Below are positions 7,722 through 58,602 of a DNA stretch of 64,000 bases, in pieces; position 1 is the first letter of the stretch, and each line of letters opens with the position of its first letter. The notes beneath the pieces were generated by a model. The model was given only the letters and a program-made list of their open reading frames with translations, ran no database searches and was not told the DNA's origin. The DNA lies in assembly GCA_048625195.1 (NCBI GenBank), contig JBMCRE010000001.1, positions 5,396 through 69,395 of the forward strand, written 5' to 3'. The position numbers and the translations under genes were made by a program. Source of the DNA: Nanobdellota archaeon (GTDB lineage: Archaea > Nanobdellota > Nanobdellia > Woesearchaeales > UBA583).

Positions 7722-7752
7722 TTTTATAATTTATTAAATAATTGTTATATTA

Positions 7753-42356: not shown

Positions 42357-42477
42357 TTTTTTGTTTTTAGTTAATATTAATTAAATATTTCTTTTTATAT
42401 GTTGTATTGTAAATATATTTTAATATTAGTTACTTATAAATTTTTATTTTTAATATTTTTAAAAAAATAAAAAAAAT

Positions 42478-42831
42478 TTATAAATCTCTTGCAGAAATTG
42501 TTTTTCTGTTATTTGCTTGAGCTCTTTTTTCTGCTTGTTTAATCATATCAATTAATACTTCATTTAAATGACTTGCAAAATCACCTGAAATATTCATTCC
42601 AGAAACAATATCTTTTACTTTTGATTTTACAATTAACATAACTTTTGAGTTTGTTTTTCCAATGAAAACATCTTTTCCTTGAATAGTTTTTCTATTGTTT
42701 GATTCTGCTCTTTTAGATGCTTTTTCTACTAATGCTACTGCAGCTTCGTTTAGTTCAGCTGTAAAGTCACCTGAAACATTAACATCTTTTACTACTTCTT
42801 TAATTTTTGATTTTACTACAATCATTTCCAT
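42478..42831 (-). CDS. Tandem histone-fold (pseudodimeric) protein
   Basis: Two ~57-aa repeats (..VKSKIKEVVKDVNVSGDFTAELNEAAVALVEKASKRAESNNRKTIQGKDV and ..VKSKVKDIVSGMNISGDFASHLNEVLIDMIKQAEKRAQANNRKTISARDL). A long alpha2 followed by N.RKTI..(K/R)D mirrors the archaeal histone ..GRKTIKAEDI L2/alpha3 signature. Confidence 0.5.
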   Translation of the reverse strand: MEMIVVKSKIKEVVKDVNVSGDFTAELNEAAVALVEKASKRAESNNRKTIQGKDVFIGKTNSKVMLIVKSKVKDIVSGMNISGDFASHLNEVLIDMIKQAEKRAQANNRKTISARDL

Positions 42832-42947
42832 TTTTTATTTTATTTTAAGGTATTATTACCTGTACTTTAAATTCAAAATGCTGTATTTATAAAACTTTCG
42901 AGTAAATTGCAAATAAAAAGCAATAAATGGAGCTAAAACTGTCTTTT

Positions 42948-43628
42948 TTATGATTTTTCACCTTTATCAAAACCATTGAGTAAATCGTTTAATACAGCTT
43001 TTATATTATTAACTTTAATTACTCCTGATGCAACTAAAATACCTTTTGCTCCTAATTGTATAGCTATTTTTACATCATTTTGATTTTTGATTCCTGCACC
43101 TACTAAAAGAGGTATTGAACCTGCTTGTTTTACTGATTTTATGATTAATTCTGGGTTTGCAGTTGTGATAGAGATGTCTCCTCCAATTAATTCTTTTGGT
43201 TCTACTGCTATAAAATCAGGATTATATTGAGATATTTTTTTAATTACTTTGTGATTTCGTGCACATAAACAAACTTCTAAATCTGCACGCTTTGCAAATT
43301 CTACTCTACTTTTGATTTCTTTATAATTATAAGTTAAATTATGTTCGCTATGGTTTATTAGTGTTCCACTAACTAGACAATCTTTTAAAGCCAAAGGAAC
43401 TATATATCCTGTATGTGCTCCAAAATCCATATTATCAATATGTTGAGAATATGTCTTAACACCTACCTTACTAACCTCTCTTAGATCGATATATGAAGGA
43501 CATAAGATTATTTCTACTCCTAAGTTTTGAGCTTTTTTTTCTAGTTGTTTGCATATTCGTGCAATTTTTATAGCATTACTTCCTAATGATTCTTTATATG
43601 TTTTTAAGTTAATTATTAATTTATACAT
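42948..43628 (-). CDS. tpiA: Triosephosphate isomerase, archaeal type (~225 aa)
   Basis: LIINLKTYKES, GTLINHSEH, DFIAVEPKELIGGDISITTANPELI, LLVGAGIKNQNDVKIAIQLGAKGILVASGVIK aligns almost residue-for-residue with archaeal TIM. Confidence 0.85.
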   Translation of the reverse strand: MYKLIINLKTYKESLGSNAIKIARICKQLEKKAQNLGVEIILCPSYIDLREVSKVGVKTYSQHIDNMDFGAHTGYIVPLALKDCLVSGTLINHSEHNLTYNYKEIKSRVEFAKRADLEVCLCARNHKVIKKISQYNPDFIAVEPKELIGGDISITTANPELIIKSVKQAGSIPLLVGAGIKNQNDVKIAIQLGAKGILVASGVIKVNNIKAVLNDLLNGFDKGEKS

Positions 43629-44022
43629 GATTATAGTAAAATTTTATTACTATATAAAAATTTGTAATTACAATATAAAAATTATTATTATTTGTTGATA
43701 TGTAAATTTTTGTTTAAATCTATTTATCCCTTTGTTACTACTGAATTGTTTATATTTATTTTTGTGAGTATTTAAATTTTAATTTTTAGTTAATTTTTTA
43801 TATTAAGTAAATAGATGATTTTATAATTAAAATAATGTTAAATTGCTAAATTTGTAAAAAAACAAGTTGGTTAAATTCTTAGAATACAAGTATTAGTTAA
43901 TATCTTTTGCTTTTAATTATTTTATTTATTAAATTATATTCTAATATTTTGGTAATTGATTTTAAAAGTTATTGAATTTTTAAAATTATCTTAATAGATT
44001 AAACTAACTATGAATCATTTTA

Positions 44023-44976
44023 TTAGATAAAAACACTTGTTAAATAAATAAAATATAATATTAACATAATGATTGCGTGTCTTTTTGTTATCTTTTTTTT
44101 CTTTAAATAAAAAATAAAAATTATAACTGAAGTAATTAAGAAGAAAATACTTAAATAATAAGATGAATTTTGAAAAGAAAATTTATGTATAAGGGTTGAA
44201 AAACCAACTATTAATAATATATTGGATATATTACTTCCAATAATATTTCCTATTGCAATATCAAATTCTTTTTTTTTTGCACTTGTATATGTAACTACTG
44301 CCTCAGGTAGAGAAGTTGCAAAAGCAAGTGTTGTTAGAGTTAAATATTCTATAGGTATAGTTAATAATAATCCTAATTGTTCTATAGAATATATAACACC
44401 TTTTGCAGATAAATTCAGTACTATTATACTTATTAATAAAATGATTAATAATATTATTGTAGATTTTTTTTTTGTTTTAGTTTTTATTTCATTAACTTCT
44501 TGAATTATTTTATCTTTCTTGTTATTTTTAATTGTTCTATATATATAATATATGTAAATGATTATTAAAATGAATCCTATTATTTGATATATTTGATTTG
44601 CTATAGTAATGTATGATAAAATTAGTGTTGAGAGTATTAAAATGTAGATATCATATTTTTTAAAATTAATTTTTAAATTTTTAGAAAATAAAATTAAAAT
44701 TGGAAATACTAAAAGAATATTAGCTATATTACTTCCAATTACTGTTCCAAAAACAAAAGCAGATGGTTCAATAATTGTAAAAGTTGCAATTATTACAGTT
44801 ATTAATTCTGGAAATGATGTTCCTATTGCAACAATGGTAATTCCAATGATAAATTTATTTAAACCTATTTTTTCTCCTAATTGTGATGAACTTGAAATAA
44901 AGTAATCAGAAGATTTAATTAAAAAATAAAAACTCAAACACATTAAAAAAATATAAAGAGATAAAATTAATATCAT
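44023..44976 (-). CDS. Ca2+/cation antiporter, CaCA family (YrbG/NCX-like)
   Basis: Two alpha-repeats: GTSFPELITVIIATF....GTVIGSNIANILLV and ATSLPEAVVTYTSAKKKEFDIAIGNIIGSNISNILL. 10 TM. Confidence 0.8.
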   Translation of the reverse strand: MILILSLYIFLMCLSFYFLIKSSDYFISSSSQLGEKIGLNKFIIGITIVAIGTSFPELITVIIATFTIIEPSAFVFGTVIGSNIANILLVFPILILFSKNLKINFKKYDIYILILSTLILSYITIANQIYQIIGFILIIIYIYYIYRTIKNNKKDKIIQEVNEIKTKTKKKSTIILLIILLISIIVLNLSAKGVIYSIEQLGLLLTIPIEYLTLTTLAFATSLPEAVVTYTSAKKKEFDIAIGNIIGSNISNILLIVGFSTLIHKFSFQNSSYYLSIFFLITSVIIFIFYLKKKKITKRHAIIMLILYFIYLTSVFI

Positions 44977-45048
44977 AATAGGTATAGTTTGAAATTGTTT
45001 TTAAAAGTTTTGATATAATAAAATAAAAATAAAAATAATATGGTAAAA

Positions 45049-45801
45049 CTATGGTTGCCAAGGACCAGGTGCAATAACAGTTGTTGGTGTTTCCATTTGA
45101 TTAGTTACAGTACTTGCACCACCGTGTCCACTACTTGAACCACTAGAGATATTTTTCTCAATTATGGTTTTCTTACTTGATGAATCACTTTTACCTGCAC
45201 TGTATCCTAATATTGAAGTCCATAATGCAATAGATGTTGCATCTGATGCTTTTGCAGAAATAAGAGTATCTTCAATACCTTTAATTGCTGCATAGGTTCT
45301 AACTTGAGTTGCTAAAACAGGCATACTATTTTGATATTGTTCCACTAAACTTAAAGCTGCATTATATTTTGATTCCCAAGAGTGATTAGGACTAGTAATA
45401 ACGCTATTGTTTAAGGCTTTAACTGGTTGTCCCATCATTGCATTTGCTTGAACTAATTCAATAACTGTATCTAAACCTTGTTTATAACCTGCGATTTCTT
45501 GAGTTGGTATGTTTTCACTTTCTGGAACTTTATATCCATTTCTGATTAATCCTTCCCAGAAATCTTTAAAGTATTGCATTGCTTTGTTTTCTTTTTCTTT
45601 TGGAACTACTTGATAATCACTTTTTCTTAAATTGTATGCTTGGTTACCAACAATATTTTGTGTATGTTGTGTTTGTGATAACATAGAATCTCTTATTGCT
45701 TTATTTGATGTTTGTATTGTTGCACCTTTATTTCCACATCCTGTACCCATAGATAAAGCTGCAAGTAATAATCCTGTACCTATTAATGTTGATTTTTTCA
45801 T
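45049..45801 (-). CDS. Secreted lipoprotein-like protein, compositionally atypical (A/G/Q/S/T-rich)
   Basis: MKKSTLIGTGLLLAALSMGTGC, a lipobox-like signal with Cys. C-terminal S/G-rich tail. Visibly higher GC than its neighbours. Its ATG overlaps the stop of the upstream gene (ATGA). Confidence 0.5.
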   Translation of the reverse strand: MKKSTLIGTGLLLAALSMGTGCGNKGATIQTSNKAIRDSMLSQTQHTQNIVGNQAYNLRKSDYQVVPKEKENKAMQYFKDFWEGLIRNGYKVPESENIPTQEIAGYKQGLDTVIELVQANAMMGQPVKALNNSVITSPNHSWESKYNAALSLVEQYQNSMPVLATQVRTYAAIKGIEDTLISAKASDATSIALWTSILGYSAGKSDSSSKKTIIEKNISSGSSSGHGGASTVTNQMETPTTVIAPGPWQP

Positions 45802-47063
45802 TCTTTATTCCCTCCTAATTCTTGATTTATAATACTATAAACTTGATTTTCATATTCTGATAAATTTTGGTCTACTCTTTGATTTAATATTGCTTGACCT
45901 GTTTTAATACCATTATCGGTTAAATCATGTTGTGTTCCGTCATATCCTGTAATACTACCTTGTAAAATAGTATTAATTGGTAAAACTATTCTTGCTAATG
46001 CGTTGTCTGCTAAAAAGCCTCTTAATTGATCTCTTTCAATAAAAGCTGAAACATCTACTAAATAACCATTACCTAAGTTTTGATTTTCATAAAAATGTCT
46101 TGCAACAGATTCATGAATTGCATGATATGTTATTGCATCATGTAGTAAAGCTGGTGTTAGTTCTTCTCTTTGATCTTCATATAAAATTTCCTTTCCCAAT
46201 ATATTTTCTAAGTCTGAAAGTTTTATTGCAGAAATTCCTACATTCTCATGTGTCATTCCGTTTAAATTTGCATCATGTATTGCTTTCATATATGAATTAA
46301 CCAACTGAGTTTGTCCTTTACCATTTGGTCTATATAGTCCTGTAGTAATAAAATCTAAAAAAACTGATTCTGGTTTTACTTTATTTGCTTTATTAAATAG
46401 TAATTCATCTTGGTGTATAACTGTAGAGTCATATACTGAAAAATTGTTGTTGTCGTTTTTTTCTATTTTGGATATATGACCATTAAAATTTTGTGGAAAA
46501 TATAAAATATCTCCTTGAAATTGTCTAGTAGATGTTTTTGTAGATTGTTTTGGAATAGTTTGAGGTGTTTTTTTTGATTTTTCTGAAATTTCAGTTTCTA
46601 ATTTGGATTCTTTTGATGTTTCTTGAACTCCTGGTATTACTCCTATTTGATTTGTTTGGGGGTTATAAACTAATCTGTTATTACCTACTACTGGAAAATT
46701 ATTATGCCCTTCTCTAAAAGGATTTTTTGCTGTTGCAAAGTTATTAGATTCTTGTAGAGAGAGTTTTCCATCTTTATTTCCTCTAAATTTATCAATTAAA
46801 TATTCTATATCAATATTTGATTTATATGCGCTATGTGCATCAGAGCCTTTTTTAACAGTAAATGGAATAGTTATTTTATCTTGTATGTTTTCATGAAATA
46901 CTGGTTGTTTTTCAACTACTTGTTGAGTAGTTTTTTGGGGTTCTTGAAAAACTGATGCAATCTCTTTTCCACTTGCTCCTGACCATGCTTGCAATGCAGG
47001 AAAGATTGTTAATGCTCCTGCGAGTCCTAATGTTGCAATTTTTTTTTTTAATTTATTTACCAT
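45798..47063 (-). CDS. Secreted protein (421 aa) with signal peptide; same atypical composition
   Basis: MVNKLKKKIATLGLAGALTIFPALQAWSGAS, a Sec signal with an A-x-S-like cleavage site. No TM afterwards. Q/G/T/V-rich. Translationally coupled to the lipoprotein gene. Confidence 0.5.
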   Translation of the reverse strand: MVNKLKKKIATLGLAGALTIFPALQAWSGASGKEIASVFQEPQKTTQQVVEKQPVFHENIQDKITIPFTVKKGSDAHSAYKSNIDIEYLIDKFRGNKDGKLSLQESNNFATAKNPFREGHNNFPVVGNNRLVYNPQTNQIGVIPGVQETSKESKLETEISEKSKKTPQTIPKQSTKTSTRQFQGDILYFPQNFNGHISKIEKNDNNNFSVYDSTVIHQDELLFNKANKVKPESVFLDFITTGLYRPNGKGQTQLVNSYMKAIHDANLNGMTHENVGISAIKLSDLENILGKEILYEDQREELTPALLHDAITYHAIHESVARHFYENQNLGNGYLVDVSAFIERDQLRGFLADNALARIVLPINTILQGSITGYDGTQHDLTDNGIKTGQAILNQRVDQNLSEYENQVYSIINQELGGNKE

Positions 47064-47132
47064 TTTTTTTAATAATAATATTATTATATCTTTTTATTTA
47101 TAAACTTTTTGCTTGTCTTCACTAATAAATAA

Positions 47133-47978
47133 TTAATTTTTATTTATGATTTCTTTAAAGTCTTTTTCTAATGTCAAAAGCATTGCATATCCTTTATCAT
47201 TAGTAGGTTTAAATGTTGATTTTAATTGATTAACATAACTAGATAATCCTTTTTTATCTGTATTTTTTGAAAAATATGAGTCTACTGCAAGTTCAAATAA
47301 TGTTTGAATATTCATATTGTTAGGAGATGTATCTTCTTTGTGATATGCTGTAATAATTTTATCAAATGCCTCACCTAAAGGCATTGAAGTATTAAATAAC
47401 GATACTTGATTTGTTTTTGTATTATAAGTTAGAGTTTCATTTTTACTGCTAATTAAAACTGGATATTTAATAGGAGTTCCATTATAGTCTTGCATAGATT
47501 TTCTATCTAAAAAATGATTTTGTTTATTTAATCTTGATTCTAAACTGCTTATTGCTTCACTTGTTTTGTTTTCAATATTTTTAATCGAATTTGACAAATT
47601 AGCTTCCAAAGATTCAAATCGTTGAGAATCTAATTGACTTTGTACTACTTGAGGCGCATGAAATTCATTTTGCATATCTTTTATTTGTTTAGATTGAGAG
47701 ATATTTAATAATAAAAAATATCCTATAGATGAATATATTAATACTTCTTTTAAAGGAATGTTAGAAAAATTAATATTAGGAATTTTAACATTAGATATAT
47801 AATCTTTCCATTTAAAAAATGATGGTAATTGAAATTGTGACTTTGAAGTATTTATGTTTTGACTATTAGACTCTTCCTCTTTATAAGTAATTGCTGGAGA
47901 TTCTAATGCAGCTTTTATCTTTCTTAACTTTCTTTGTTCTTTAGTTTCTGGGTTAACTTTAAATATATTTAATTCCAT
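47133..47978 (-). CDS. Membrane-anchored protein (type II topology); paralog of the 48162..48830 C-terminal domain
   Basis: TM VLIYSSIGYFLLLNIS at ~aa 80. The C-terminal region (..NIQTLFELAVDSYFSKNTDKKGLSSYVNQL..GYAMLL) aligns with the C-terminus of the divergent 48162 gene (..NTYTLFQLMALGLDNKNISHKELDLYLSKL..GFDAYQNL). Confidence 0.45.
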   Translation of the reverse strand: MELNIFKVNPETKEQRKLRKIKAALESPAITYKEEESNSQNINTSKSQFQLPSFFKWKDYISNVKIPNINFSNIPLKEVLIYSSIGYFLLLNISQSKQIKDMQNEFHAPQVVQSQLDSQRFESLEANLSNSIKNIENKTSEAISSLESRLNKQNHFLDRKSMQDYNGTPIKYPVLISSKNETLTYNTKTNQVSLFNTSMPLGEAFDKIITAYHKEDTSPNNMNIQTLFELAVDSYFSKNTDKKGLSSYVNQLKSTFKPTNDKGYAMLLTLEKDFKEIINKN

Positions 47979-48161
47979 TTTTTATTTATTATATACTTAT
48001 TATTAATATTTATTTATAAATCTTTTCTTATTTTTCACTGTTTAGTAATTAAATTTAATTACAATAAGTGGTAGTGATGAGTTGTTTTTATTTGTAACTA
48101 CTGCCAAGGTGTTACTTTCGATAGGTTTATAAATTACTAATTATTAATAATCTTAAAGAAA

Positions 48162-48830
48162 ATGGGAATTATTAATGAAAACACTGTGAATAAATATAAT
48201 AATGCATTTAATGGAAATTCTAAAGCACAATTAATCAAAAAAGGTTTAATATATGGATTAAGTCTACTTGTTTTAAGTGGAGGAATGTATGGTATTAATA
48301 AAAATAAAAATAATATATCATCAAATTCTAGTCAAGTTGAATTCCTTAAACAACGACAAAATGTACACAAACACAATTTAGAATCTCTAATTGATGATAT
48401 TCAAACTAATGTTGATAATATAGTAGAACAATCTTCTCAACCTCAAAGTTATCTGGAGAAATATCTTGTAGACAATAAAAACAGGTCTAATTATAACTTT
48501 GACATATTTATAGATGATGACTCTCAAAAATTATTAATGACTTATGATAAAAATAATAATCTTATTAAAATAGGTGAAAAAAGCATAAAATTAGATGAAT
48601 TTTTAAATCTTTCATTAGATAATTATTTAAAAAGTGCTCAAAATCAAACTCCTGGAGAGAAAAATACATATACTTTATTTCAATTAATGGCTTTAGGATT
48701 GGATAATAAAAATATCTCTCATAAAGAATTAGATCTATATTTATCAAAACTAGATCAAATATATAAAAAAAACAGCGATAATGGTTTTGATGCTTATCAA
48801 AATTTAAAATTTCAATTAAATAATTTATAA
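48162..48830 (+). CDS. Membrane-anchored protein (N-terminal TM), paralog of 47133..47978
   Basis: TM LIYGLSLLVLSGGMYGI. Shared C-terminal domain as described for the 47133..47978 gene. Divergently transcribed from its paralog. Confidence 0.45.
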   Translation: MGIINENTVNKYNNAFNGNSKAQLIKKGLIYGLSLLVLSGGMYGINKNKNNISSNSSQVEFLKQRQNVHKHNLESLIDDIQTNVDNIVEQSSQPQSYLEKYLVDNKNRSNYNFDIFIDDDSQKLLMTYDKNNNLIKIGEKSIKLDEFLNLSLDNYLKSAQNQTPGEKNTYTLFQLMALGLDNKNISHKELDLYLSKLDQIYKKNSDNGFDAYQNLKFQLNNL

Positions 48831-49050
48831 TTATTATGATTATATATTAAAAAAATATATTAAAATCATCTTTATTTTATCTTATTATAAGTTTCTTAAC
48901 TCCTTATTAATAATAATTAATCATTTTAAATCTGTTCAATATTATATTATATAATGGTGTTTAAGAATAGAGTATAATCTTAAATATATATAAAAATGTA
49001 GGAATTATTATTTAATTTGGAATTTAAATAATAATTAGAATTTATAAAAA

Positions 49051-50370
49051 ATGGGAGATAATTTAAATAAAATTAATTTAGAACATGTAACTAAAGTTGA
49101 AGGTCATGCAGAGGTAGATATTTCTATAAAAAATGGTAAAGTTGAAAAAGCTAATGTTCATAGTGTTGAAGGAGCTAGATATTTTGAAGGATTGATTAGA
49201 GGAAGAAAATATGATGAAGTAACTTTGATTACATCGAGAATTTGTGGAATTTGCTCTTGTGGGCATACTGTGTGCTCAATAAAAGCAATTGAAAATGCTT
49301 TTTCTATAAAAGTAAGTAGACAGACTGAATTATTAAGAGAGCTAATAACTATTGGAGAGAGAATTCGTTCTCATGCATCTCATATTTATTTTTTTTGTTT
49401 ACCTGATTATTTAGGATATTCTTCTGCAATTGATATGGCAAATAAGTATGCATCACAAATAAAAGATGCTATGGATATTGTGCGAGTTGGTAATAATCTT
49501 ATTAAATTAATTGGAGGAAGAGATATGCATCCATTTGTAAGTGTCCCAGGAGGATTTACAAAAATACATTCCCAAGAGGAATTTATTAATATAAAAGAAG
49601 AACTTAAAAATATAATACCTGCAATAAAAAGGACAATTACATTATTTGCAAGTTTAAATGTTCCAAAGTATAAAAAAAAAGATACTATATTTTTATCATT
49701 AGATAATCATAGGTCTTATCCTTTGCATACTGGGGATATAATTACTAATAGTAAAATTAAATTTAAACAAAAAGATTATAAAAATTTCATTAAAGAGACA
49801 TTTCATAAGGGTTCAACTGCTAAATTTGCAACAATTCAAGGCAAAGAATATACTACTGGTGCACTTGCAAGAATAAATAATTCTTATGGTAAATTATCTA
49901 AAGATACTAAAGATATGATTAAAAGATTAAATTTGAATTTTCCATCAACTAATTTATTTGATCAAAATTTAGCTCAAGCATTAGAAATTTTACATTGGAC
50001 TCAAAGAGGAATTGAAATATTAGAAAAAAATAATTTTAAAAGTGAAGATAAACAAGATATTAAATTGCAAAAAGATGTAAAAGAGTATCGAGGTATTGCT
50101 GCAATTGAAGTACCAAGAGGAATTTTATTTCATGATTATACTTTTGATGAAAAAGGTATTTTAATTAATGCTAATATTATTACTCCAACTGTTCAAAATT
50201 TACCTGATATGGAAGTTAATGTTCAAAATTATTTAAATCAAGTTTTAGAAAATGAACCTAATAAAAAAAAGAAAGAATTGGTTTTAGAAATTGAAAAAAT
50301 GATTAGAGCTTTTGATCCTTGTTTTAGTTGTTCAACTCATTTTTTAAAAGTTAATTGGAAAAATAAATAA
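49051..50370 (+). CDS. [NiFe]-hydrogenase large subunit, group 3-like (FrhA/MvhA-type termini); no small subunit adjacent
   Basis: N-terminal VEGHAEV...RICGICSCGH (L1 Ni-binding CxxC). C-terminal DPCFSCSTH (L2 DPCxxCxxH, which defines groups 1-3 rather than group 4). Confidence 0.8.
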   Translation: MGDNLNKINLEHVTKVEGHAEVDISIKNGKVEKANVHSVEGARYFEGLIRGRKYDEVTLITSRICGICSCGHTVCSIKAIENAFSIKVSRQTELLRELITIGERIRSHASHIYFFCLPDYLGYSSAIDMANKYASQIKDAMDIVRVGNNLIKLIGGRDMHPFVSVPGGFTKIHSQEEFINIKEELKNIIPAIKRTITLFASLNVPKYKKKDTIFLSLDNHRSYPLHTGDIITNSKIKFKQKDYKNFIKETFHKGSTAKFATIQGKEYTTGALARINNSYGKLSKDTKDMIKRLNLNFPSTNLFDQNLAQALEILHWTQRGIEILEKNNFKSEDKQDIKLQKDVKEYRGIAAIEVPRGILFHDYTFDEKGILINANIITPTVQNLPDMEVNVQNYLNQVLENEPNKKKKELVLEIEKMIRAFDPCFSCSTHFLKVNWKNK

Positions 50371-50429
50371 AATTGATATTTGTTTTGTTTTTTTAATAAA
50401 TAAATATTATTTGTTTATTTTAATTATAA

Positions 50430-50837
50430 TTAATTTTCTATATTATCTAAAGTTTTACTCCAAAGTTTATGAATGTTACAATATGCTCTTACTTGCAATA
50501 TTTGAGAATTTATTGGAATTATAAATTCTGCTTTTGGTTTTTGATTTGGATTTAATTGTTTTTTTAATGTAATGTCATTATCTGTTATAACTTCTATCCA
50601 TTCAATATAATGTTTTTCTTCCATTGGATGCATAGTTTCACCTATTTGAATATAAATTATATCATCTTGGATTTTAATAAATGGGACGTGTTTTTCTTTT
50701 GATGTATTTATTGTATTTTCTTCTTGAATTTGCATTGGCTGATTACAACATACTAATTCTCCTTCTCCTGTATTTAATATTTTTACAATGTTTCCACAAA
50801 CTTCACATTTATATATTTCATTTAATTTAGTTGCCAT
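50430..50837 (-). CDS. dfx: Desulfoferrodoxin (2Fe superoxide reductase); the track ORF extends to 50885 but the real start is most likely MATKLNEIYK..
   Basis: EIYKCEVCGNIV...GELVCCNQPM (desulforedoxin FeS4 centre). KEKHVP..I......HPM...H.IEWI and C..H.LW (SOR centre). Near-collinear with Desulfovibrio Dfx. Confidence 0.85.
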   Translation of the reverse strand: MATKLNEIYKCEVCGNIVKILNTGEGELVCCNQPMQIQEENTINTSKEKHVPFIKIQDDIIYIQIGETMHPMEEKHYIEWIEVITDNDITLKKQLNPNQKPKAEFIIPINSQILQVRAYCNIHKLWSKTLDNIEN

Positions 50838-50927
50838 ATTATTATTTAAGATATTCATTATTATAAATTTAATTGTTTTACTCAATTTAATTTAGGTTTT
50901 TTGTGATTTTTTTTTTATTTTTTTCAG

Positions 50928-52121
50928 TTGTTAAGTGCGTTTATAAAAAATGATTTATTATATCTATGTATTATGGAAGAAAAATTTTCACCATTAACAT
51001 TTTTAGCATCGTTAGGAGCTGGTGGTATTGCAATAATGCCTTTTGTATTAATGCAATATACATTAGAACATGGAAAAGGTTTAATTACAAGAAGTAAATT
51101 ATGGGATTTAGTAAATACTTTAAATTTAAATTCATATTATTATTTTGGATTAGAATTCGTTATGATATTGTTTACTATTATTCATTTTGTACTTACAATC
51201 TTTTTTGGATATAAATTATTTAAGTGGATGCAAACTAAAGATTATTTATTATTAGTTTCAAATCCTTTAACAAATGCTACTCTTTTAGCACCTTTAATTT
51301 CTATATTAATGACAATGAATGTTTTTATTGGTCCTATTAGATATTTTTTACCAATAATGTATAATAATTTTCAAAGTTTGTTTTTACCTGCAATGATTTT
51401 TTGGAGTATATTATTTGTTTTTATAATGTATGTAGAGGTTAATTTATTAAGTATATCTTTTAAAAAAGGTTTTGATATTGAAAAGATAAATTTTGGTTGG
51501 CTGTTGCATCCATTTTTATTAGGAATGCTTAGTGTTGTAGGTTCTGGGATTGCAGCTATGAGTCAGGATTTTCTGATTGCCAATATTGCAGCTTTTATGA
51601 CTTTAATTTCTGTTAGTATGGGAGTATTTTTATTATTAGTTAAAATGATAGTTTTATTTACAAGACATTTTAGTCTAAAAGGTTTACCTGAAAAGAATTT
51701 TTTGCCAAGTTTTTTAATTGTTATACCAAATATTACTCTATATGCAATTACAGCATTTAGATTAGGACATTTTTTAGAAACACATCAAGGATTTCATTTA
51801 GGACCTTATTTTTATTTAGTAATAGGATTTTTCTTTGCATTTGAAATTTGGTATTTTTTATTTGGATTAACATTATTAGTTGATTATTTTAAGAAACATC
51901 ATTTTAAAGATTTTTATATAACTCAATGGGGTTTGATTTGTCCAGTAGTTGCATTTGGTGTTTTAGGTTCGTTTGCATATAAAATTTTATTGCCTTATAA
52001 AATATTTTATATTATATTAGTTTTAACAATGTTAATTGCAATAATTTTATATTTTGAATTATTATTAAAACATTTTAAATGTTTAAATAGTAAATCTAAA
52101 AAAATTAATTGTCAAATTTAG
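50928..52121 (+). CDS. Polytopic membrane protein (~10 TM), putative transporter (TDT/TehA-like topology)
   Basis: Ten hydrophobic segments. No diagnostic motif recognised. The start may be the internal MEEKF. Confidence 0.35.
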   Translation: MLSAFIKNDLLYLCIMEEKFSPLTFLASLGAGGIAIMPFVLMQYTLEHGKGLITRSKLWDLVNTLNLNSYYYFGLEFVMILFTIIHFVLTIFFGYKLFKWMQTKDYLLLVSNPLTNATLLAPLISILMTMNVFIGPIRYFLPIMYNNFQSLFLPAMIFWSILFVFIMYVEVNLLSISFKKGFDIEKINFGWLLHPFLLGMLSVVGSGIAAMSQDFLIANIAAFMTLISVSMGVFLLLVKMIVLFTRHFSLKGLPEKNFLPSFLIVIPNITLYAITAFRLGHFLETHQGFHLGPYFYLVIGFFFAFEIWYFLFGLTLLVDYFKKHHFKDFYITQWGLICPVVAFGVLGSFAYKILLPYKIFYIILVLTMLIAIILYFELLLKHFKCLNSKSKKINCQI

Positions 52122-52193
52122 TTTTATAACTGAATTTGTTTTAACAATTATTGACTAAAGTTTATAAATTACGAAATTCTTATATATATTATT

Positions 52194-52535
52194 ATGGATG
52201 CGTTAATAATGAGTTATTTAGTAGTATTAATTATATTTATTGTGTCAGCATTACCTTTACATTTTGCTGTTAAATTTGTAGGTGGTAAAACCTATTTTTT
52301 AAAAAGTTTAGTAATTGTTATTTTAACTGGGTTTATTGCCTCTGCTATTACTATATTTTTTCCATTTGCAAATTTAATTATATTTTTGGTTCTAATATGG
52401 ATATATCATGAAGTGTTTAGACTAAAATGGATAAAAGCATTTTTAGTATTAATATTACAAGCTATATTTATGTTTATATTAGCTGTAATATTAGTATTTT
52501 TCTTTAGTTTTAATTTATTATTTAATTTTTTTTAA
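52194..52535 (+). CDS. Small membrane protein (3-4 TM), hypothetical
   Basis: Almost entirely hydrophobic. Confidence 0.3.
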   Translation: MDALIMSYLVVLIIFIVSALPLHFAVKFVGGKTYFLKSLVIVILTGFIASAITIFFPFANLIIFLVLIWIYHEVFRLKWIKAFLVLILQAIFMFILAVILVFFFSFNLLFNFF

Positions 52536-52618
52536 TTAGATTTTTAGTTTAGTTTAGTTATTTTTTCTTTTTTATATTATTATTATTATTATTTTTTATA
52601 TTTATTTTTATTTAATAT

Positions 52619-53476
52619 TTATTCAATTATAATAACTATTAAATATCCTAGAATCATAAATAAAACTATTAATAGAGTATTTATTATATTGAAGTTTGTA
52701 GATAAAATTATTGTTTTTATTGGTGTTGATAAAGCTCCTAATACTAAACCTAATAAAAAAAATAATGTTTTACATTTATCTTTTTTAAATAAATAATCTA
52801 TTACTCTTGATATTGTTATTGCTCCTAATATTGCCCCTATTGCAAAACTTAAAATTATTTTGTATTCTTTGATAATATTATGTAGAGCACCATAAACTAT
52901 ATTGTATAAACCAAGTATATATAATATAAATGAACCTGATATTCCCGGTAAAAACATTGCAGAAATTGCTAAAAATCCTCCAAAAGTTATATATATTAAT
53001 GATGCAGAACTTAAATTGGTTGTATTAAAAAAAATAAAAGATAAACCTATTAAAAAACCAATAAACCCTATTAAATAATTATTAAAACTATAATTTTTTA
53101 ATTCTTTTTTGATAAAAATTGTAGATGCAAAAATTAATCCAACAAAAAATGATAATATTAAACTTTGATAATATTCTAATAAATATAATATTAATTTTGA
53201 AATTAAAAAAATAGCACTAAATATCCCTAAAAATAATATTAATAAAAAATCTATGTTTAATTTAAAGAAGTCTTTTTTAAAATTTTTAAAATCTCCTTTG
53301 AATAGTTTGAGATTCATATAAAAAAAATCTTTATTTGTGAGATTTTTTATTGAAGAGATAAATTTTTCATATATACCAGTAATAAATGCGATTGTTCCTC
53401 CACTTATACCAGGTATTACATCACAAGTTCCCATTGCAAAACCTTTTAAATATACTTTTAAATAATTTTTATTCAT
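52619..53476 (-). CDS. DUF368 (COG2035)-family membrane protein
   Basis: Duplicated P-G-I-S-G-(G/S) motifs, DVIPGISGGTIAFITGIYE and FLPGISGSFILYILGLY, each at the start of a 4-TM half. Confidence 0.5.
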   Translation of the reverse strand: MNKNYLKVYLKGFAMGTCDVIPGISGGTIAFITGIYEKFISSIKNLTNKDFFYMNLKLFKGDFKNFKKDFFKLNIDFLLILFLGIFSAIFLISKLILYLLEYYQSLILSFFVGLIFASTIFIKKELKNYSFNNYLIGFIGFLIGLSFIFFNTTNLSSASLIYITFGGFLAISAMFLPGISGSFILYILGLYNIVYGALHNIIKEYKIILSFAIGAILGAITISRVIDYLFKKDKCKTLFFLLGLVLGALSTPIKTIILSTNFNIINTLLIVLFMILGYLIVIIIE

Positions 53477-53477
53477 T

Positions 53478-54509
53478 TTATATGTTTATAATGATTAAGT
53501 TGTCAATCTCTTTTGCGAATTTGAATAGTCCTTTTGGACAGTTTTCAATAAAAAATATTTTTGGTTTTTGAGATGAGGTGTAATATTTTATGATTTGGTT
53601 TTGATTTGGTTTTTTATAAAAGAAATAACAATCTATCTCGATTAATATTTTTGAGAGTTGTAAATTTGTTTTATAATAAATACCCTTATCATCTTTTTGC
53701 TTACTCTCTATTGTTAAATAATTTTCTTTTAAAAAATTCTCAATAAAATTTTCTTTTTGGTTTTTTTGCATTTTAATGTTTAATTCTTTCTGATTTTTTG
53801 AATTTTGATATGTATTATTATTGTTTTGATTGTTATTAGTTGAATTAAAGTTGTTTGATGTGTTATAATTTGAATTATTATTTAATTGATTAGATTGATT
53901 GCTTAGTTCTTGCTTGATATTTGAATTAAATGTTTGCTGATTGGATTGATTATTGTTGTGATTATTGTTATAGTTTTGATTGTTATTATTATTAGATTGT
54001 TGTTGGGTAGTTGTTGATTTATTGATTTGTTGTTGGTTTTTGTTTTTTTGTGTATTAGATTTGGGATTTAATGCTTCTAATATTTGTGACTTTGTATCAT
54101 CTAAATTTCTTTGATACCAAACCCAAAATTTGAAATTTTTATTATTATTGGTAAGTTCTAATTGGTATGCAAAATCTTTTATATTTCCTATTGCTAATCG
54201 TTCCTGAATCGTCAAACTATTGTCATTAACTATTTGTTTTTCTTTTAGTTTATGAAAGATTTCTTTTTCATTTTTAGAAAGATGTTTCTCGCCTAACTCT
54301 ATTAAAACTGAGGATTGTTTTGGATCATAATAATATGGTGTAGAAGATAATTTTAAATAAGTTATCTTAATTAATTTCTCTTTTGCAAGTTCTGATAGAG
54401 CAGCCGATGCTATTGTTGTTGTTGTATCAAAAACTTGTGCAACAGATGAAGGAATAACAGCTTTTTCTTGTTTTATATATCTTAAAAGATTATCTTTAGT
54501 TAGTATCAT
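53478..54509 (-). CDS. Tandem winged-helix protein with long N/Q-rich low-complexity linker (TFE/TFIIE-alpha-like wH?)
   Basis: Two wH-like units ending in aromatic wings (..ITYLKLSSTPYYYDP.. and ..NFKFWVWYQRNLDD..), reminiscent of the TFE ..GWIYYYW.. wing. Then ~120 aa of NNNQNN repeats, then a C-terminal domain. Confidence 0.35.
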   Translation of the reverse strand: MILTKDNLLRYIKQEKAVIPSSVAQVFDTTTTIASAALSELAKEKLIKITYLKLSSTPYYYDPKQSSVLIELGEKHLSKNEKEIFHKLKEKQIVNDNSLTIQERLAIGNIKDFAYQLELTNNNKNFKFWVWYQRNLDDTKSQILEALNPKSNTQKNKNQQQINKSTTTQQQSNNNNNQNYNNNHNNNQSNQQTFNSNIKQELSNQSNQLNNNSNYNTSNNFNSTNNNQNNNNTYQNSKNQKELNIKMQKNQKENFIENFLKENYLTIESKQKDDKGIYYKTNLQLSKILIEIDCYFFYKKPNQNQIIKYYTSSQKPKIFFIENCPKGLFKFAKEIDNLIIINI

Positions 54510-54777
54510 AGTTATATTAATTTATTTGATTTTTTTAAACTTTGCTATAAGATGAACAGTGATAAAAAAATGAAATTAAAGAATTTTAATAAAATATATT
54601 AAGAAAAATTTAATTTTTAAGAACTTATAAATTTTATTTTATTGAATTAATACTATTAATGATGTTTAATAATGATAAATCGGATTATGCACCTAAAAAT
54701 GCACTTGAATTAAAACAAATATTCTCAATAATTTAATTAATAAAAATATTTTTAAATACTAAAAACATATAGATATT

Positions 54778-56871
54778 ATGAGAATTAAAGAGAAAGAATA
54801 TTTTGATAAGAGTAAAAAATTGTTAGAAATAGATAAAAAAAATATACAAAAACCTGATGCAGAAAGTATTATTAATGATTTAAAAAATGTAATAAGATAT
54901 CATGACTGGAGATATTATGTAAAAAATGATCCTATTATCTCCGATAAAGAATATGATGAACTTTTTGATTTGTTAAAAAATATAGAATCGAAGTGGCATG
55001 ATTTAAGAGATAAGAATTCACCAACTCAAAGAATATCTGAAAAAATTACTGATGAATTTAAAAGTGTTGAACATTTAAAACCTATGTTATCATTAGATAA
55101 TTCGTATGATAAAAATGATATCAAGGATTTTTATAAAAGAGTTAAAAGAAATCTTTCAAAAAAGGATATTAAATATTCTTTGGAACCTAAACTAGATGGT
55201 AGTGGAATCTCTATAATTTATGAAAATGATAATCTTATAAGAGGAGCAACTCGTGGAAATGGAATAAGAGGTGATGATGTTACAGGAAATATAAAGACAA
55301 TAAAAACTATCCCACTAATTGCTAAATTTGACAACGAAGGAATTAAAAAAATAGAAATAAGGGGTGAAGTTTTACTTAGTAAAAAAAGGTTTAATGAAAT
55401 TAATAAGCAACGTAGAAAGAATTCGAAAAATCTTTTTGCAAATCCAAGGAATGCAGCTGCAGGAACAATAAGATTACAAGATCCTAAAGAAGTTTCTAAG
55501 AGAGAACTTGAAATAATTGTATATCAAATAACTACTGCTCTTGATAAAAATGAAAAAGAATTACTTGGAAAAGATATTAAAAGTCAACAAGAAAGCATTA
55601 AACTTCTTAAAAGATTAGGTTTTAAAACTTTGCTTGACGAGACAGAAATCGGAAGAGATATAGATGATATATTAAAATATTCGAAAGAATGGAACAATAA
55701 AAGAGACAATTATCCTTATGAAGTTGATGGTCTTGTAATAAAGATTGATAATATACAATTTCATGAGAAATTAGGTTTTACTTCTAGACATCCAAAATGG
55801 GCTATTGCACATAAGTTTGAAGCAAAGCAAGCTACTACAGAAATAACAGAAGTGATATTTAATGTAGGAAGAAGTGGTATTGTAACTCCTGTTGCAAAAC
55901 TTGATCCTGTTAATATTGGAGGTGTTAATATTTCATCTGTGTCTTTGATTAATGAAGATTTTATAAATGAAAAAGATATACGAGAGAAAGATCAAATACT
56001 TATTGAGAGAGCAGGAGATGTTATACCTTATGTTGTAAAATCTATAAAAGATGCAAGAAAAAAAGATTCAGAAAGGATAAAGTTTCCACAAAAATGTCCT
56101 TCATGTAATCATAAAATAAAAAGAATAGATGATGAAGTTTATTGGAGATGTTTCAATTCTCAATGTCCAGCACAAATAAAAGAGAAAATTAGACACTTTT
56201 CATCTAAAGAATGTATGGATATTAAAGGTCTTAGTGAAAAGACTATAAATAAATTGTATGAGACTGGTGATTTGAGGAATATTGCTGACATATATAGATT
56301 TGATTATGAAAAACTAAAAAGTTATCCAAGATTTGCTAAAAAATCTATTAATAACATTAAGAAAGCTATTGAAGATTCAAAAAGTAGAGATTTATATTGT
56401 CTAATAAATGGATTAGGTATACCACTTATTGGAAAGAATCATTCAAGAATACTTTCATTAAATGTTGATAGCATCGATGATATTATTAAACTAAAAATTA
56501 ATGATATGATAAAATTCGAGGATTTTGGAATTATAACTACTAAAAGTGTTTACAATTTTTTCAAAGAAGAAAGTAACTTAAAAATTATATCAGAATTGAA
56601 AAAATTAGGAGTTAATACTAAAAATAAAAAAAGTACCAAATCTGACAAATTAAAAGATAAAACTTTTGTGTTTACAGGTTCACTTGATGATTATACCAGA
56701 GAAGAAGCACAAAATATTGTTGAAGAACTAGGGGGAAGAGCAACATCATCTATTAGCTCAAATACCGATTTTCTTATTGTTGGAAAAAATGTAGGTTCTA
56801 AATATAATGAAGCTAAAAAGTATGATGTAAAAATTATTAATGAAAAAGAGTTCAAAAAACTTATTAGTTAA
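54778..56871 (+). CDS. ligA: NAD+-dependent DNA ligase (LigA): adenylation, OB, Zn-finger, HhH, BRCT
   Basis: EPKLDGSGISIIY (KxDG adenylation site). CPSCNHKIKRIDDEVYWRCFNSQC (Zn finger). HhH repeats. C-terminal BRCT (KTFVFTGSLDDYTREEAQNIVEELGGRATSSISSNTDFLIVG). Confidence 0.9.
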   Translation: MRIKEKEYFDKSKKLLEIDKKNIQKPDAESIINDLKNVIRYHDWRYYVKNDPIISDKEYDELFDLLKNIESKWHDLRDKNSPTQRISEKITDEFKSVEHLKPMLSLDNSYDKNDIKDFYKRVKRNLSKKDIKYSLEPKLDGSGISIIYENDNLIRGATRGNGIRGDDVTGNIKTIKTIPLIAKFDNEGIKKIEIRGEVLLSKKRFNEINKQRRKNSKNLFANPRNAAAGTIRLQDPKEVSKRELEIIVYQITTALDKNEKELLGKDIKSQQESIKLLKRLGFKTLLDETEIGRDIDDILKYSKEWNNKRDNYPYEVDGLVIKIDNIQFHEKLGFTSRHPKWAIAHKFEAKQATTEITEVIFNVGRSGIVTPVAKLDPVNIGGVNISSVSLINEDFINEKDIREKDQILIERAGDVIPYVVKSIKDARKKDSERIKFPQKCPSCNHKIKRIDDEVYWRCFNSQCPAQIKEKIRHFSSKECMDIKGLSEKTINKLYETGDLRNIADIYRFDYEKLKSYPRFAKKSINNIKKAIEDSKSRDLYCLINGLGIPLIGKNHSRILSLNVDSIDDIIKLKINDMIKFEDFGIITTKSVYNFFKEESNLKIISELKKLGVNTKNKKSTKSDKLKDKTFVFTGSLDDYTREEAQNIVEELGGRATSSISSNTDFLIVGKNVGSKYNEAKKYDVKIINEKEFKKLIS

Positions 56872-56880
56872 TAAAGATAT

Positions 56881-58602
56881 TTATTTTTTGTTTTTAAAAT
56901 GTTTTATGAAATCTTTATAGGGAAGCGTGTTTATGACATCGTTTTTTGTTAGCCAGCCTCTTCTTGCTTGAGAAATTCCGTATTTTATAAAATTGAGATT
57001 AGAGATATTATGAGTATCAGTATTTATAACAAATTTTGCACCACATTCCTTTGCAAATTTTATATTTATATCGTTGAGGTCTAACCTTTTAGGGTTTGAG
57101 TTTATTTCTAAACATTTGTTATTTTTTGCGATTTCTTTGTATATTTTTTTTGAGTCAAATTCTATTTCTGCTCTTTTTCCAATTATTCTACAAAGAGGAT
57201 GACCTAATATGTCTAAATTCTCATTATTAATTGCATTTAGTATACGATTTGTCATATCTTTTTTTGATAGTTTAAATTTTTTATGAATTGAACATATCTT
57301 AATATCAAGTTTCTGTAAAGTATCATCATCATAATCAAGACTTCCATCTTCGAGAATATCTATCTCGGAACTTTTCAATATTTTCATTTGTGAATTTTTT
57401 TGCAATTTATCTATCTCTTTTATTTCCTTTTTTAGTTCATTTTTGCTCAATCCTGATGCTATAATTGCAGATTTAGAATGATCACTAATTGCAATATATT
57501 CATATCCTTTTTCTTGTGTAGCATCAACAATTTCTTTTATTGTGTTATTACCATCTGTCAATTTACTATGGATATGAAGGTCTCCTTTTATATCTTTTAG
57601 TTTAATTAGTTTTGGAATCTGATTCTTCTTTGCAGTTTCTATTTCACCTTTGTTTTCTCTTAATTCAGGAGGTATCCATTGCATTTTTAACTTATTATAA
57701 ATATCCTCCTCTTTTTCACCTGCAATTTTTTTGTTTTTTTTGTTGTATAGACCATATTCTGATAATTTATATCCTTTTTTCTGAGCGATTTTACGCAATT
57801 CTATATTGTGCTCTTTACTTCCAGTGAAATACTGCATTGCTGCACCAAAACTTTTCTTATCTATTAATCTTAAATCTATTTGAATATTGTTTTTTAAAAT
57901 TATTGTGCTTTTAGATTTTCCTTTTGATATTATATCTGATATATCATCCATATTTGTAAAAACATCTATCACTTTCTGGGGTTCTTTTGAGAATGCGAGT
58001 ATGTCAATGTCTCCGATTGTCTCTTTTTGTCTTCTAAGAGAACCTGCATAAATTATCTTATCAATTGGGGATTTAGCTTTCAATTTTTCAATGATTTCTT
58101 CTGCAATGGGCATCGCTTCTGATATAAGCATTCGCTCGGATACTTTTTCATATCTTTGAATAGATTTCTTTATATTATCCTGAGTCTTCTGACCAAATCT
58201 TTCGAGTTCTTTTATCTTATCTTGTTCTATTGCTTCTTTTAAGTCTTTAATGTTTGATATTTTTAATTCTTCTTGAAGCTCTTTTATCTTTTTAGGTCCT
58301 AATCCTTCAATTTTCATGAGTAAAGATTGTGATAAAGGAATTTGCTTGAAAAGTTCTTCAAATTCTTTTACTTTTCCATTTAAAATATATTCTTCAAGAT
58401 GTTTTGCTATTGATTCACCTACTCCAGGGAGTTTCTTTAATGCATTTATTCCTTTTTTCTCATAAAGTTTAGTAATATTATGGTTTAGATTTTCTATGCT
58501 ATTTGCAGCTGTTCTATACGCAATAGGTTTCCATTCAACCCCTTTTATTTCGTATGCGTTAGCAACATTGTTTAATATCTCTATTAATTCTTTGTTTATC
58601 AT
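56881..58602 (-). CDS. polX: DNA polymerase X family with C-terminal PHP 3'-5' exonuclease/phosphoesterase domain (PolX)
   Basis: N-terminal HhH (GVGESIAKHL, LGPKKIKEL). Pol-beta nucleotidyltransferase GSLRRQKETIGDIDIL. PHP motifs GDLHIHSKLTDG and AISDHS. Confidence 0.85.
   Translation of the reverse strand: MINKELIEILNNVANAYEIKGVEWKPIAYRTAANSIENLNHNITKLYEKKGINALKKLPGVGESIAKHLEEYILNGKVKEFEELFKQIPLSQSLLMKIEGLGPKKIKELQEELKISNIKDLKEAIEQDKIKELERFGQKTQDNIKKSIQRYEKVSERMLISEAMPIAEEIIEKLKAKSPIDKIIYAGSLRRQKETIGDIDILAFSKEPQKVIDVFTNMDDISDIISKGKSKSTIILKNNIQIDLRLIDKKSFGAAMQYFTGSKEHNIELRKIAQKKGYKLSEYGLYNKKNKKIAGEKEEDIYNKLKMQWIPPELRENKGEIETAKKNQIPKLIKLKDIKGDLHIHSKLTDGNNTIKEIVDATQEKGYEYIAISDHSKSAIIASGLSKNELKKEIKEIDKLQKNSQMKILKSSEIDILEDGSLDYDDDTLQKLDIKICSIHKKFKLSKKDMTNRILNAINNENLDILGHPLCRIIGKRAEIEFDSKKIYKEIAKNNKCLEINSNPKRLDLNDINIKFAKECGAKFVINTDTHNISNLNFIKYGISQARRGWLTKNDVINTLPYKDFIKHFKNKK

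Follow-up and report, generated by a model that had tools for sequence, protein, structure and literature searches.

The question raised by this locus is why the large, catalytic subunit of a [NiFe]-hydrogenase (alpha) should be encoded by itself in a Nanoarchaeota/Woesearchaeota (DPANN) MAG of 22% GC, and whether such a solitary gene still serves a working enzyme. The initial annotation of this DNA had called the arrangement unusual and had left a choice between partner subunits encoded elsewhere and a sensory or remnant hydrogenase. Here we consider alpha together with the window around it (by which we mean the whole 64 kb stretch of DNA that was analysed), with its relatives and with a candidate delta subunit from another contig. 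We argue that an operon has most likely been split, such that a functional group 3b alpha gene has moved away from delta and its partners are encoded elsewhere in the same genome.

Results

Identity and class of the large subunit

The alpha gene and the parts of its product that bear on classification are:

49051..50370, + strand: alpha (HydA/ShyA/HyhL-type) large subunit gene of a group 3b [NiFe]-hydrogenase, 439 aa, from the ORF and its Pfam, NCBIfam and PDB matches
49237..49266, + strand: N-terminal Ni-Fe ligand motif RICGICSCGH, residues 63–72, with Cys65 and Cys68
50314..50340, + strand: C-terminal Ni-Fe ligand motif DPCFSCSTH, residues 422–430, with Cys424, Cys427 and His430
50341..50367, + strand: C-terminal extension FLKVNWKNK, presumed maturation tail, nine residues after the last His

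The alpha protein is NCBI MFW6285588.1 (P0001; 100% match), and in the Pfam scan PF00374 (NiFeSe_Hases; cut-off 25.8) recognizes it at 118.8 bits with E=4e-34, which bears out the original reading of the ORF as a 439-aa [NiFe] large subunit with both ligand motifs. The columns of both motifs are invariant in alignment A1; the counterpart of the N-terminal motif in solved group 3b enzymes is RICSFCSAAH, and that of the C-terminal motif in 5yxy and 9nez is DPCISCSVH. A tail of about ten residues after DPCxxCxxH had been described; the extension is indeed present, its exact length being nine residues, and its FLKVNW stretch is kept in 20 of 20 aligned relatives (A1). The length is no anomaly, given that characterised group 3b enzymes have four residues after the His.

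The placement in group 3, at first argued from the His ending and the size of the protein, can be refined to group 3b on the NCBIfam and PDB scores. The ShyA (287 bits) and HydA (274 bits) models score above those of VhuA (184 bits), FrhA (147 bits) and NuoD (16–23 bits), and among PDB entries the best scores go to T. kodakarensis HyhL (5yxy) and the P. furiosus SHI alpha subunit (9nez/9e15), with about 236 bits along the whole protein, as compared with 190 bits for group 3c, at most 160 bits for group 3a and 115 bits for group 3d. Since the full-length homology is to solved group 3b structures (E=7e-69), the fold of alpha is settled. Judged by its sequence, alpha is a group 3b, NAD(P)-coupled, sulfhydrogenase-type large subunit, and since its scores lie far under the NCBIfam equivalog cut-offs (700 for ShyA and 880 for HydA) it belongs to a distant orthologue or paralogue lineage and not to ShyA/HydA proper.

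Two further placements were considered and rejected. A Nuo/Ech-like non-hydrogenase homologue, which the initial annotation had named as one outcome that would overturn its reading, is at variance with the low NuoD scores and with the presence of both ligand motifs, and alpha falls inside the [NiFe] hydrogenases. The large subunits of the sensory group 2b hydrogenases (HoxBC/HupUV) have no C-terminal extension and are still encoded beside their small subunit; alpha differs from them in having the extension, and it groups with 3b by every score.

The operon of the relatives and the window around alpha

Among the relatives delta lies directly 5' of alpha, in the two closest (81–82% identity) as in the others, and the usual arrangement is a beta-gamma-delta-alpha operon. 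The gene order in L001, L003, L005, L007, L008 and L009 reads Fer4_22 / NAD_binding_1+DHODB_Fe-S_bind / Oxidored_q6 / NiFeSe_Hases, and genes for HypA and HypC lie within a few kb of the relatives' operon. Delta sits 5' of alpha at each of 26 distinct genome-derived loci (distant operons, obtained from a contig scan with a delta+alpha concatenate) and at each of the 71 metagenome loci whose DNA extends far enough 5' to be informative (from a scan with alignment A1). The gap between delta and alpha in the relatives' operons is 1–4 nt, delta stopping 1 nt before alpha in the closest relative (P0002, 82%); an 81-aa ORF lies between the two genes in L008, and a nucleotidyltransferase gene in L009. 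The coupling of delta to alpha is otherwise very stable, with no second break among the approximately 97 relatives whose context can be read.

In the present locus a spacer takes the place of delta:

48831..49050, no strand: AT-rich spacer in place of the relatives' delta gene, 220 nt, without a delta remnant

That the upstream flank is noncoding had been recognized from the start, at a length of 210 nt that has to be corrected to 220 nt. Neither tblastn nor tblastx found a delta remnant within this spacer. In the 64 kb window as a whole, tblastn gave no match to P0124, the candidate delta described below, or to the beta, gamma, delta, HypA and HypC proteins taken from four relatives. Pfam scans of the approximately 57 window ORFs revealed no member of the Oxidored_q6, Hyp or HycI families, no transposase, no [FeFe] hydrogenase or HyhS-fusion gene near alpha and no candidate alternative partner for it. 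The search for partner genes took in 49 kb on the 5' side of alpha and 13.6 kb on its 3' side, and nowhere within the window do delta, beta and gamma stand beside alpha as in a group 3b cluster. The homology of the window to the relatives is limited to 49060–50370, and flanking synteny, which was sought in order to place the breakpoint, is absent beyond the alpha ORF. The solitary context of alpha is real and rare, just as had been proposed, and it is no chance pattern, because delta lies upstream of alpha in every informative relative locus.

Expression signals

Two elements flank the coding sequence:

49023..49030, + strand: TATA-like box TTTAAATA, putative promoter, 28 nt 5' of the ATG
50380..50394, + strand: oligo-T tract TTGTTTTGTTTTTTT, possible archaeal terminator, 10 nt beyond the alpha stop, within the 59 nt that separate the convergent genes

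The start of alpha is of the class ‘TATA only, no SD’, whereas in the relatives L007, L001 and L115 an AGGAGG or GGAGG Shine–Dalgarno (SD) site lies within the 3' end of delta. Across the window genes, 15 TTWAWAWA boxes fall in the bin from −30 to −26 and one to six in each of the other bins; a box at −36 to −22 was found for 19 of 57 window genes, as compared with 7 of 57 for the control interval. We suggest that the alpha transcript arises from a putative promoter of its own and is probably leaderless; the motif is short and AT-rich in a 22%-GC genome, and it is backed by this positional enrichment. Since archaeal transcription generally terminates at oligo-T tracts, TTGTTTTGTTTTTTT may be read as the corresponding terminator.

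Integrity of alpha and selection acting on it

Alpha keeps every one of the 141 clade-invariant residues in A1 (141/141), and the Tajima relative-rate chi-square was below 2.2 in every test, with no rate acceleration in alpha. Its dN/dS values of 0.129–0.166 compare with 0.127–0.189 between in-operon pairs, bearing in mind that pairwise dN/dS averages both lineages and is therefore blind to a very recent loss of function. The GC3 of alpha is 0.089, that of the neighbouring genes 0.07–0.12 and that of the relatives 0.18–0.38. A recent horizontal acquisition of alpha was rejected in view of this fully host-like GC3. As far as can be read from the sequence, alpha is intact, is not a remnant and is subject to purifying selection as the in-operon copies are. 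The suggestion of a sensory or remnant hydrogenase finds no support in view of purifying selection, a steady rate, the retention of all invariant residues, codon composition resembling that of the host and a promoter-like element belonging to alpha itself.

A candidate delta subunit on another contig

The delta protein MFW6285954.1 (P0124; 287 aa) is intact, is 83% identical to the delta of L007 and matches the P. furiosus SHI delta subunit over its full length (145 bits). Its number is 366 after that of alpha, in an accession series that runs consecutively along the contig (from alpha, 588, to LigA, 594, there are exactly seven genes). It is encoded on a 54,750-bp contig that contributes none of the 120 best alpha homologues. 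Measured against the L007 orthologues, FYMINK-directed substitutions stand at 24:4 in delta and 34:13 in alpha, the controls being roughly symmetric; moreover, the identities of delta and of alpha to each relative locus run in parallel. Going by accession proximity, composition and co-divergence, MFW6285954.1 is most likely encoded in the same genome as alpha. Since an intact delta with a nearby accession lies on a contig without alpha and has the same AT-driven amino-acid bias, the partners are most likely located elsewhere in the same genome, and here the earlier idea that the partner subunits are encoded elsewhere gains support. Batch-submitted MAGs also receive neighbouring accession blocks.

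One alternative is that beta, gamma and delta have been lost, that alpha is an orphaned leftover which has not yet decayed, and that MFW6285954.1 comes from another MAG of the same submission. We consider this improbable. The assignment of delta to the genome of alpha is indeed an inference, the genomes of DPANN archaea are patchy and reduced, the 64 kb contain neither a partner gene nor a maturation gene, and a very recent relaxation of selection would escape pairwise dN/dS; but a decaying gene is hard to reconcile with the full set of invariant residues and the unaccelerated rate, with a dN/dS of 0.13–0.17 relative to operon-bearing relatives that differ by approximately 19% of their amino acids, or with the replacement of the SD site by a promoter-like box where such boxes typically lie in this genome. 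It would, in addition, call for a second and independent anomaly, namely a delta without alpha in another MAG that is equally AT-rich, equally related and within the same accession block.

The desulfoferrodoxin neighbour and a possible new role

Downstream, alpha converges with the following gene:

50430..50837, − strand: desulfoferrodoxin (Dfx; 2Fe superoxide reductase), approximately 135 aa from ATG 50837, convergent with alpha

The convergent superoxide reductase had been correctly identified: at 167.5 bits TIGR00320 clears its cut-off of 146.9, the models TIGR00319 and TIGR00332 pass too, and Pfam finds both domains, Desulfoferrod_N and Desulfoferrodox, so that the protein has the N-terminal desulforedoxin-like FeS4 domain as well as the C-terminal ferrous-iron (neelaredoxin) domain. 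The maximal ORF reaches TTG 50885 and the Logan gene call (L033) begins at 50858; translation probably begins from an ATG, either at 50837 or at 50858, and not from TTG 50885. In none of the relatives examined does Dfx lie beside the hydrogenase. Dfx and the hydrogenase had together been taken to indicate a strictly anaerobic, H2-linked life; a generally anaerobic lifestyle still follows, while the pairing itself, because it is not conserved in relatives, has no specific functional meaning beyond that. A TsoY-family gene is likewise adjacent to alpha.

One could nevertheless imagine that alpha has entered a new partnership or role without beta-gamma-delta, be it as an H2 sensor, with another Fe-S partner (for instance a HyhS fusion, as in archaeal hybrid hydrogenases) or in a Dfx/TsoY oxidative-stress module. 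Its transcription unit is independent of delta, Dfx and the TsoY-family gene are adjacent, and archaea are reported to pair some [NiFe] large subunits with unconventional partners (PMC11216029). We judge this very unlikely, however, as alpha is indistinguishable from its in-operon orthologues in conserved positions and in rate, so that nothing suggests a changed interface, as the cognate intact delta is very probably present in the genome, and as the adjacency to Dfx is conserved in no relative and the window offers no alternative partner. We likewise give little credence to the bolder proposal that the detached alpha, freed in stoichiometry and regulation from beta-gamma-delta, has a distinct role through co-expression with Dfx/TsoY or through a non-canonical electron-transfer partner; were it true, it would be a natural case of modular [NiFe] large-subunit re-use in a minimal archaeon.

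Soundness of the assembly

Independent Logan contigs of run SRR21542054, on which no paper was found in the literature, match the window at 38162–50126 and 50206–60423 with 99.99–100% identity. One of them (L034, 99.99% identity) runs from the upstream gene across the 220-nt spacer and 1,076 nt into alpha, differing at one position, and the gap between the two contigs falls inside alpha, from 50126 to 50206. Repeats at the alpha junction are confined to low-complexity AT matches. That an assembly or binning artefact has made the contig chimeric at the AT-rich spacer, alpha in truth following delta, is the least probable reading of all, for although the junction is AT-rich and of low complexity and the Logan contigs break within alpha, an independent contig crosses the junction, there is no repeat to mislead the assembler, the GC3 of alpha is host-like, and true operons, which leave 1–4 nt, have no room for a 220-nt spacer with a promoter-like box.

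Discussion

To return to the split operon, we suggest that the ancestor carried a beta-gamma-delta-alpha operon in which alpha would have been translated from an SD site in the end of delta, and that a rearrangement in this lineage alone, after its split from the 81–82% identical relatives, parted alpha from delta. Alpha would now form its own transcription unit amid unrelated genes, preceded by the TATA-like box at −28 in place of an SD site and followed, beyond its stop codon, by the oligo-T tract. Its product most likely assembles with delta MFW6285954.1 from the other contig, presumably together with beta and gamma, and we infer that the genes for beta, gamma and the Hyp proteins are present in the genome of alpha. 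The resulting complex, a cytosolic one, is predicted to pass electrons between NAD(P)H and H+/H2, presumably in the H2-evolving direction, and fermentative reductant may be disposed of via this complex.

The predicted enzyme resembles P. furiosus sulfhydrogenase I/II (HydBGDA/ShyBCDA) and T. kodakarensis Hyh, to which alpha matches with approximately 236 bits over residues 8–432 and the candidate delta with 145 bits. The four Cys ligands, the terminal His and a short C-terminal tail are common to all of them, as is the four-subunit gene set found in the close relatives of alpha. Differences from the Pyrococcus/Thermococcus enzymes lie in the mesophilic-type, 22%-GC DPANN host, in a tail of nine rather than four residues and in the absence of delta from the surroundings of alpha. 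For Woesearchaeota, hydrogenases of group 3b are already in the literature (PMC8421398). The Woesearchaeota/Nanoarchaeota operons (for example CP060218.1, CP060219.1 and JGI Ga0377182_005599) belong to the same clade, with 48–82% identity, the same HFLKVNW tail and the same predicted function; they nevertheless keep beta-gamma-delta-alpha together, and alpha is fully detached, with its own start signals, only in the present genome. The hybrid [FeFe]-[NiFe] complexes of Thermoplasmatota, in which HyhL occurs with a HydA-HyhS fusion, set an example of a large subunit of the group 3 type being used outside the usual operon layout (PMC11216029). Unlike those hybrids, alpha has no [FeFe] or HyhS-fusion gene near it, and a canonical stand-alone delta exists. 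The locus is best read as a split operon, and not as a new kind of hydrogenase or a new enzyme class.

Finally, the locus records a rare break between delta and alpha; with it, internal initiation coupled to an SD site has given way to a start that lies close to the putative promoter and is probably leaderless. The case also counsels caution, in that a catalytic subunit which seems orphaned in a fragmented MAG is not to be regarded as sensory or decaying until the other contigs have been checked. For the DPANN host itself, the inference of H2 metabolism most likely stands.

The hydrogenase gene and its class

The gene studied here, alpha, encodes a [NiFe]-hydrogenase large subunit that is 100 % identical to MFW6285588.1, an NCBI entry titled 'Ni/Fe hydrogenase subunit alpha [Nanoarchaeota archaeon]' from a MAG contig of 92.5 kb, and matches Pfam NiFeSe_Hases at 4e-34. 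The ORF, its two ligand motifs and the convergent desulfoferrodoxin gene (Dfx) had been described accurately in the initial annotation, as reading of the ORF and the Pfam and TIGR00320 matches confirm:

49051–50370 (+), alpha, 439 aa
alpha residues 63–72 (+), RICGICSCGH, in the translation
alpha residues 422–430 (+), DPCFSCSTH, in the translation, followed by the nine residues FLKVNWKNK
50430–50885 (−), two-domain desulfoferrodoxin ORF, convergent with alpha, above the TIGR00320 equivalog cut-off
50973–52121 (+), TsoY-family gene, next beyond Dfx

The spacer upstream of alpha is 220 nt long, and GC content (22 %) is uniform along the window. Dfx probably starts at the ATG at 50837 or 50858; its adjacency to alpha is conserved in no relative and is therefore incidental. 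The TsoY-family protein is a SLAC1/TehA-like membrane protein encoded divergently from Dfx; at 277 bits it passes the cut-off of 250 for the 'selenoprotein TsoY' equivalog, but as its ORF is uninterrupted it appears to be a non-selenocysteine form.

The best NCBIfam models for alpha are two group 3b alpha equivalogs (ShyA, 287 bits; HydA, 274 bits), followed by VhuA (184) and FrhA (147); a NuoD-type homologue can be dismissed, as such models reach merely 16–23 bits. The top solved structures, at about 236 bits over residues 8–432, are likewise group 3b (Thermococcus kodakarensis HyhL, 5yxy; Pyrococcus furiosus sulfhydrogenase I alpha, 9nez and 9e15), with 190 bits for a group 3c and 115 bits for a group 3d structure. 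The proposed group 3 membership is thus narrowed to group 3b and, since the scores fall far below the ShyA and HydA equivalog cut-offs, to a DPANN lineage of it that is distinct from ShyA and HydA proper. Several Woesearchaeota subgroups have already been reported to carry group 3b hydrogenases (PMC8421398).

Integrity of the alpha subunit

A sensory or remnant hydrogenase, as once considered for this gene, finds no support. Alpha keeps 141/141 invariant columns of a 20-sequence alignment, including the proton-transfer VEGH region, both ligand motifs, the EVPRG arginine and the HFLKVNW tail. Tajima relative-rate tests against the relatives P0002 and P0003 with nine outgroups gave chi-square values of at most 2.2, and NG86 dN/dS against in-operon genes (0.129–0.166) compares with 0.127–0.189 for in-operon pairs. 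GC3 of alpha (0.089) is host-like (other window genes 0.07–0.12; relatives 0.18–0.38), which indicates that the gene has long been resident in the host genome. Nor does the concern over a missing maturation extension apply, since characterized group 3b enzymes carry a tail of only four residues, in contrast to nine here. We conclude that alpha encodes a genuine group 3b [NiFe]-hydrogenase large subunit that looks functional.

Detachment from the ancestral operon

In 6/6 relatives (48–81 % identity) the canonical cluster runs Fer4_22 (diaphorase subunit beta), NAD_binding_1+DHODB_Fe-S_bind (diaphorase subunit gamma), Oxidored_q6 (small subunit delta) and NiFeSe_Hases (alpha), and in the closest relative, P0002 (82 %), 1 nt separates the end of delta from alpha. 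Delta lies directly upstream of alpha in all 26 distinct genome-derived loci, with loosened spacing only in L008, L009 and L031 (a 210-nt gap in the last). Of 80 metagenome loci, 71 extend 700 nt or more upstream of alpha, and each of these has delta there, within 300 nt in 69 cases and 430–480 nt away in two. Among about 97 loci the window is the sole exception, which bears out the view that a lone large subunit is unusual; the solo context is genuine as well as rare. Homology between window and relatives is confined to 49060–50370, the flanks not being shared.

Relatives' hydrogenase loci attract insertions: in L009 an NTP_transf_2/Polbeta nucleotidyltransferase gene (7187–7996) separates delta from alpha and a ParE toxin lies downstream, in L008 an 81-aa ORF (7754–7999) occupies the same place, and in L001 an IS200-type Y1 transposase (9771–10181) closely follows alpha. 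Such insertions could represent intermediates toward the full delta–alpha split of the window.

An assembler artefact is rejected as the cause of the solo context: in an independent Logan assembly of SRR21542054, one contig (L034) matches 38162–50126 with one mismatch and runs from the upstream 222-aa ORF across the spacer and 1,076 nt into alpha, a second (L033) is identical to 50206–60423, and no significant repeat was found at the junction upstream of alpha. Both contigs stop inside alpha, leaving a 79-nt gap (50126–50206); strain heterogeneity within the gene, or low coverage there, could explain gap and mismatch.

The start signals of alpha have changed too, in the direction that detachment would predict. 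Across 57 window genes, TTWAWAWA boxes cluster 26–30 nt upstream of start codons (15 in that 5-nt bin, 1–6 per bin elsewhere); 19/57 genes have one at −36 to −22, against 7/57 in a control interval. Six operon-internal genes carry GGAGG or GAGGT at −16 to −4, and none of the 57 has both box and Shine–Dalgarno (SD) site, so that the two classes are exclusive; this suggests leaderless mRNAs for the 19 box-bearing genes. Alpha has TTTAAATA at −28 (49023–49030), no SD site, and an oligo-T tract after its stop codon, while in L007, L001 and L115 AGGAGG or GGAGG precedes alpha inside the 3' end of delta. Judged by motif position, alpha would thus be transcribed on its own, probably into a leaderless mRNA. 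Taken together, alpha is a gene detached from the ancestral beta–gamma–delta–alpha operon in one DPANN lineage.

Other genes of the window

Pfam scans of about 57 ORFs show the window to be an ordinary piece of archaeal chromosome, with genes for ribosomal proteins S9, L13, S11, S4, S13, S8e and L15e; RNA polymerase subunit D, RLI, Elp3, TFS, RNase P p29 and histone; Ala- and His-tRNA synthetases, TIM, DnaK, LigA and PolX. Several further genes are listed here:

45049–48830, four ORFs without Pfam match directly upstream of alpha (250, 421, 281 and 222 aa)
53478–54509 (−), 343-aa protein without Pfam match; about 120 residues in its centre form an Asn/Gln-rich tract of low complexity; conserved in Logan contig L033
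54778–56871 (+), bacterial-type NAD-dependent DNA ligase LigA (MFW6285594.1)
56881–58602 (−), PolX-PHP polymerase, adjoining LigA; both also on L033
58678–60219 (−), 513-aa protein, GGDEF diguanylate-cyclase domain (E=8e-21) then HD_5 (HD-GYP-like) domain
8206–8700, weak archaeal flagellin/pilin-like match, beside the first of the next five
8925–11210, 11784–13502, 15990–19250, 31268–33265 and 34427–36070, large ORFs (547–1086 aa) without Pfam match at E<=1e-3

The 250- and 421-aa ORFs have signal-peptide or lipobox-like N-termini, the 281-aa protein is a weak paralogue of the 222-aa one (26 % identity, E=4e-8), and a 94-nt stretch (71 % identity) is common to the upstream regions of the 421- and 281-aa genes. 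Since archaea are generally considered to encode cyclic-di-GMP signalling proteins only rarely, the GGDEF/HD_5 gene may be a bacterial acquisition. The five large ORFs are typical DPANN 'dark' proteins.

Location of the partner subunits

The reported lack of a small subunit, diaphorase or maturation protease near alpha holds for the window: Pfam detected no Oxidored_q6 small subunit, diaphorase, Hyp protein or HycI-type protease among the ORFs, and in tblastn of the window, queries from four relatives (beta, gamma, delta, HypA and HypC) and the candidate delta hit only the unrelated RLI ferredoxin domain.

That candidate, MFW6285954.1, emerged from a search that used the closest relative's delta as query. 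It has 287 aa with every Cys motif intact, is 83 % identical to the delta of L007, and aligns full-length with P. furiosus SHI delta (145 bits). It lies on a 54,750-bp contig of a MAG labelled 'Nanoarchaeota archaeon' at NCBI; since no alpha was found on this contig among the best 120 alpha homologues, it too is without an adjacent alpha. Its accession number is 366 after that of alpha, in a series running gene by gene (alpha 588 to LigA 594 for seven genes in the window; RLI, 564). Its FYMINK content is the highest of all delta homologues, with FYMINK-directed substitutions of 24:4 against L007 delta; alpha shows the same pattern (highest content, 34:13), and control pairs are roughly symmetric. 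Moreover, delta/alpha identities to relative loci co-vary (L007, 83/81; L009, 72/71; L001, 65/67; L003, 55/52). Considering the accession series, the absence of an adjacent alpha, the FYMINK bias and the co-varying identities, delta is most likely encoded elsewhere in the same genome, in line with the earlier suggestion that partner subunits lie elsewhere. The partners of alpha would then most likely be encoded in trans, a gene arrangement that is rare but biologically ordinary.
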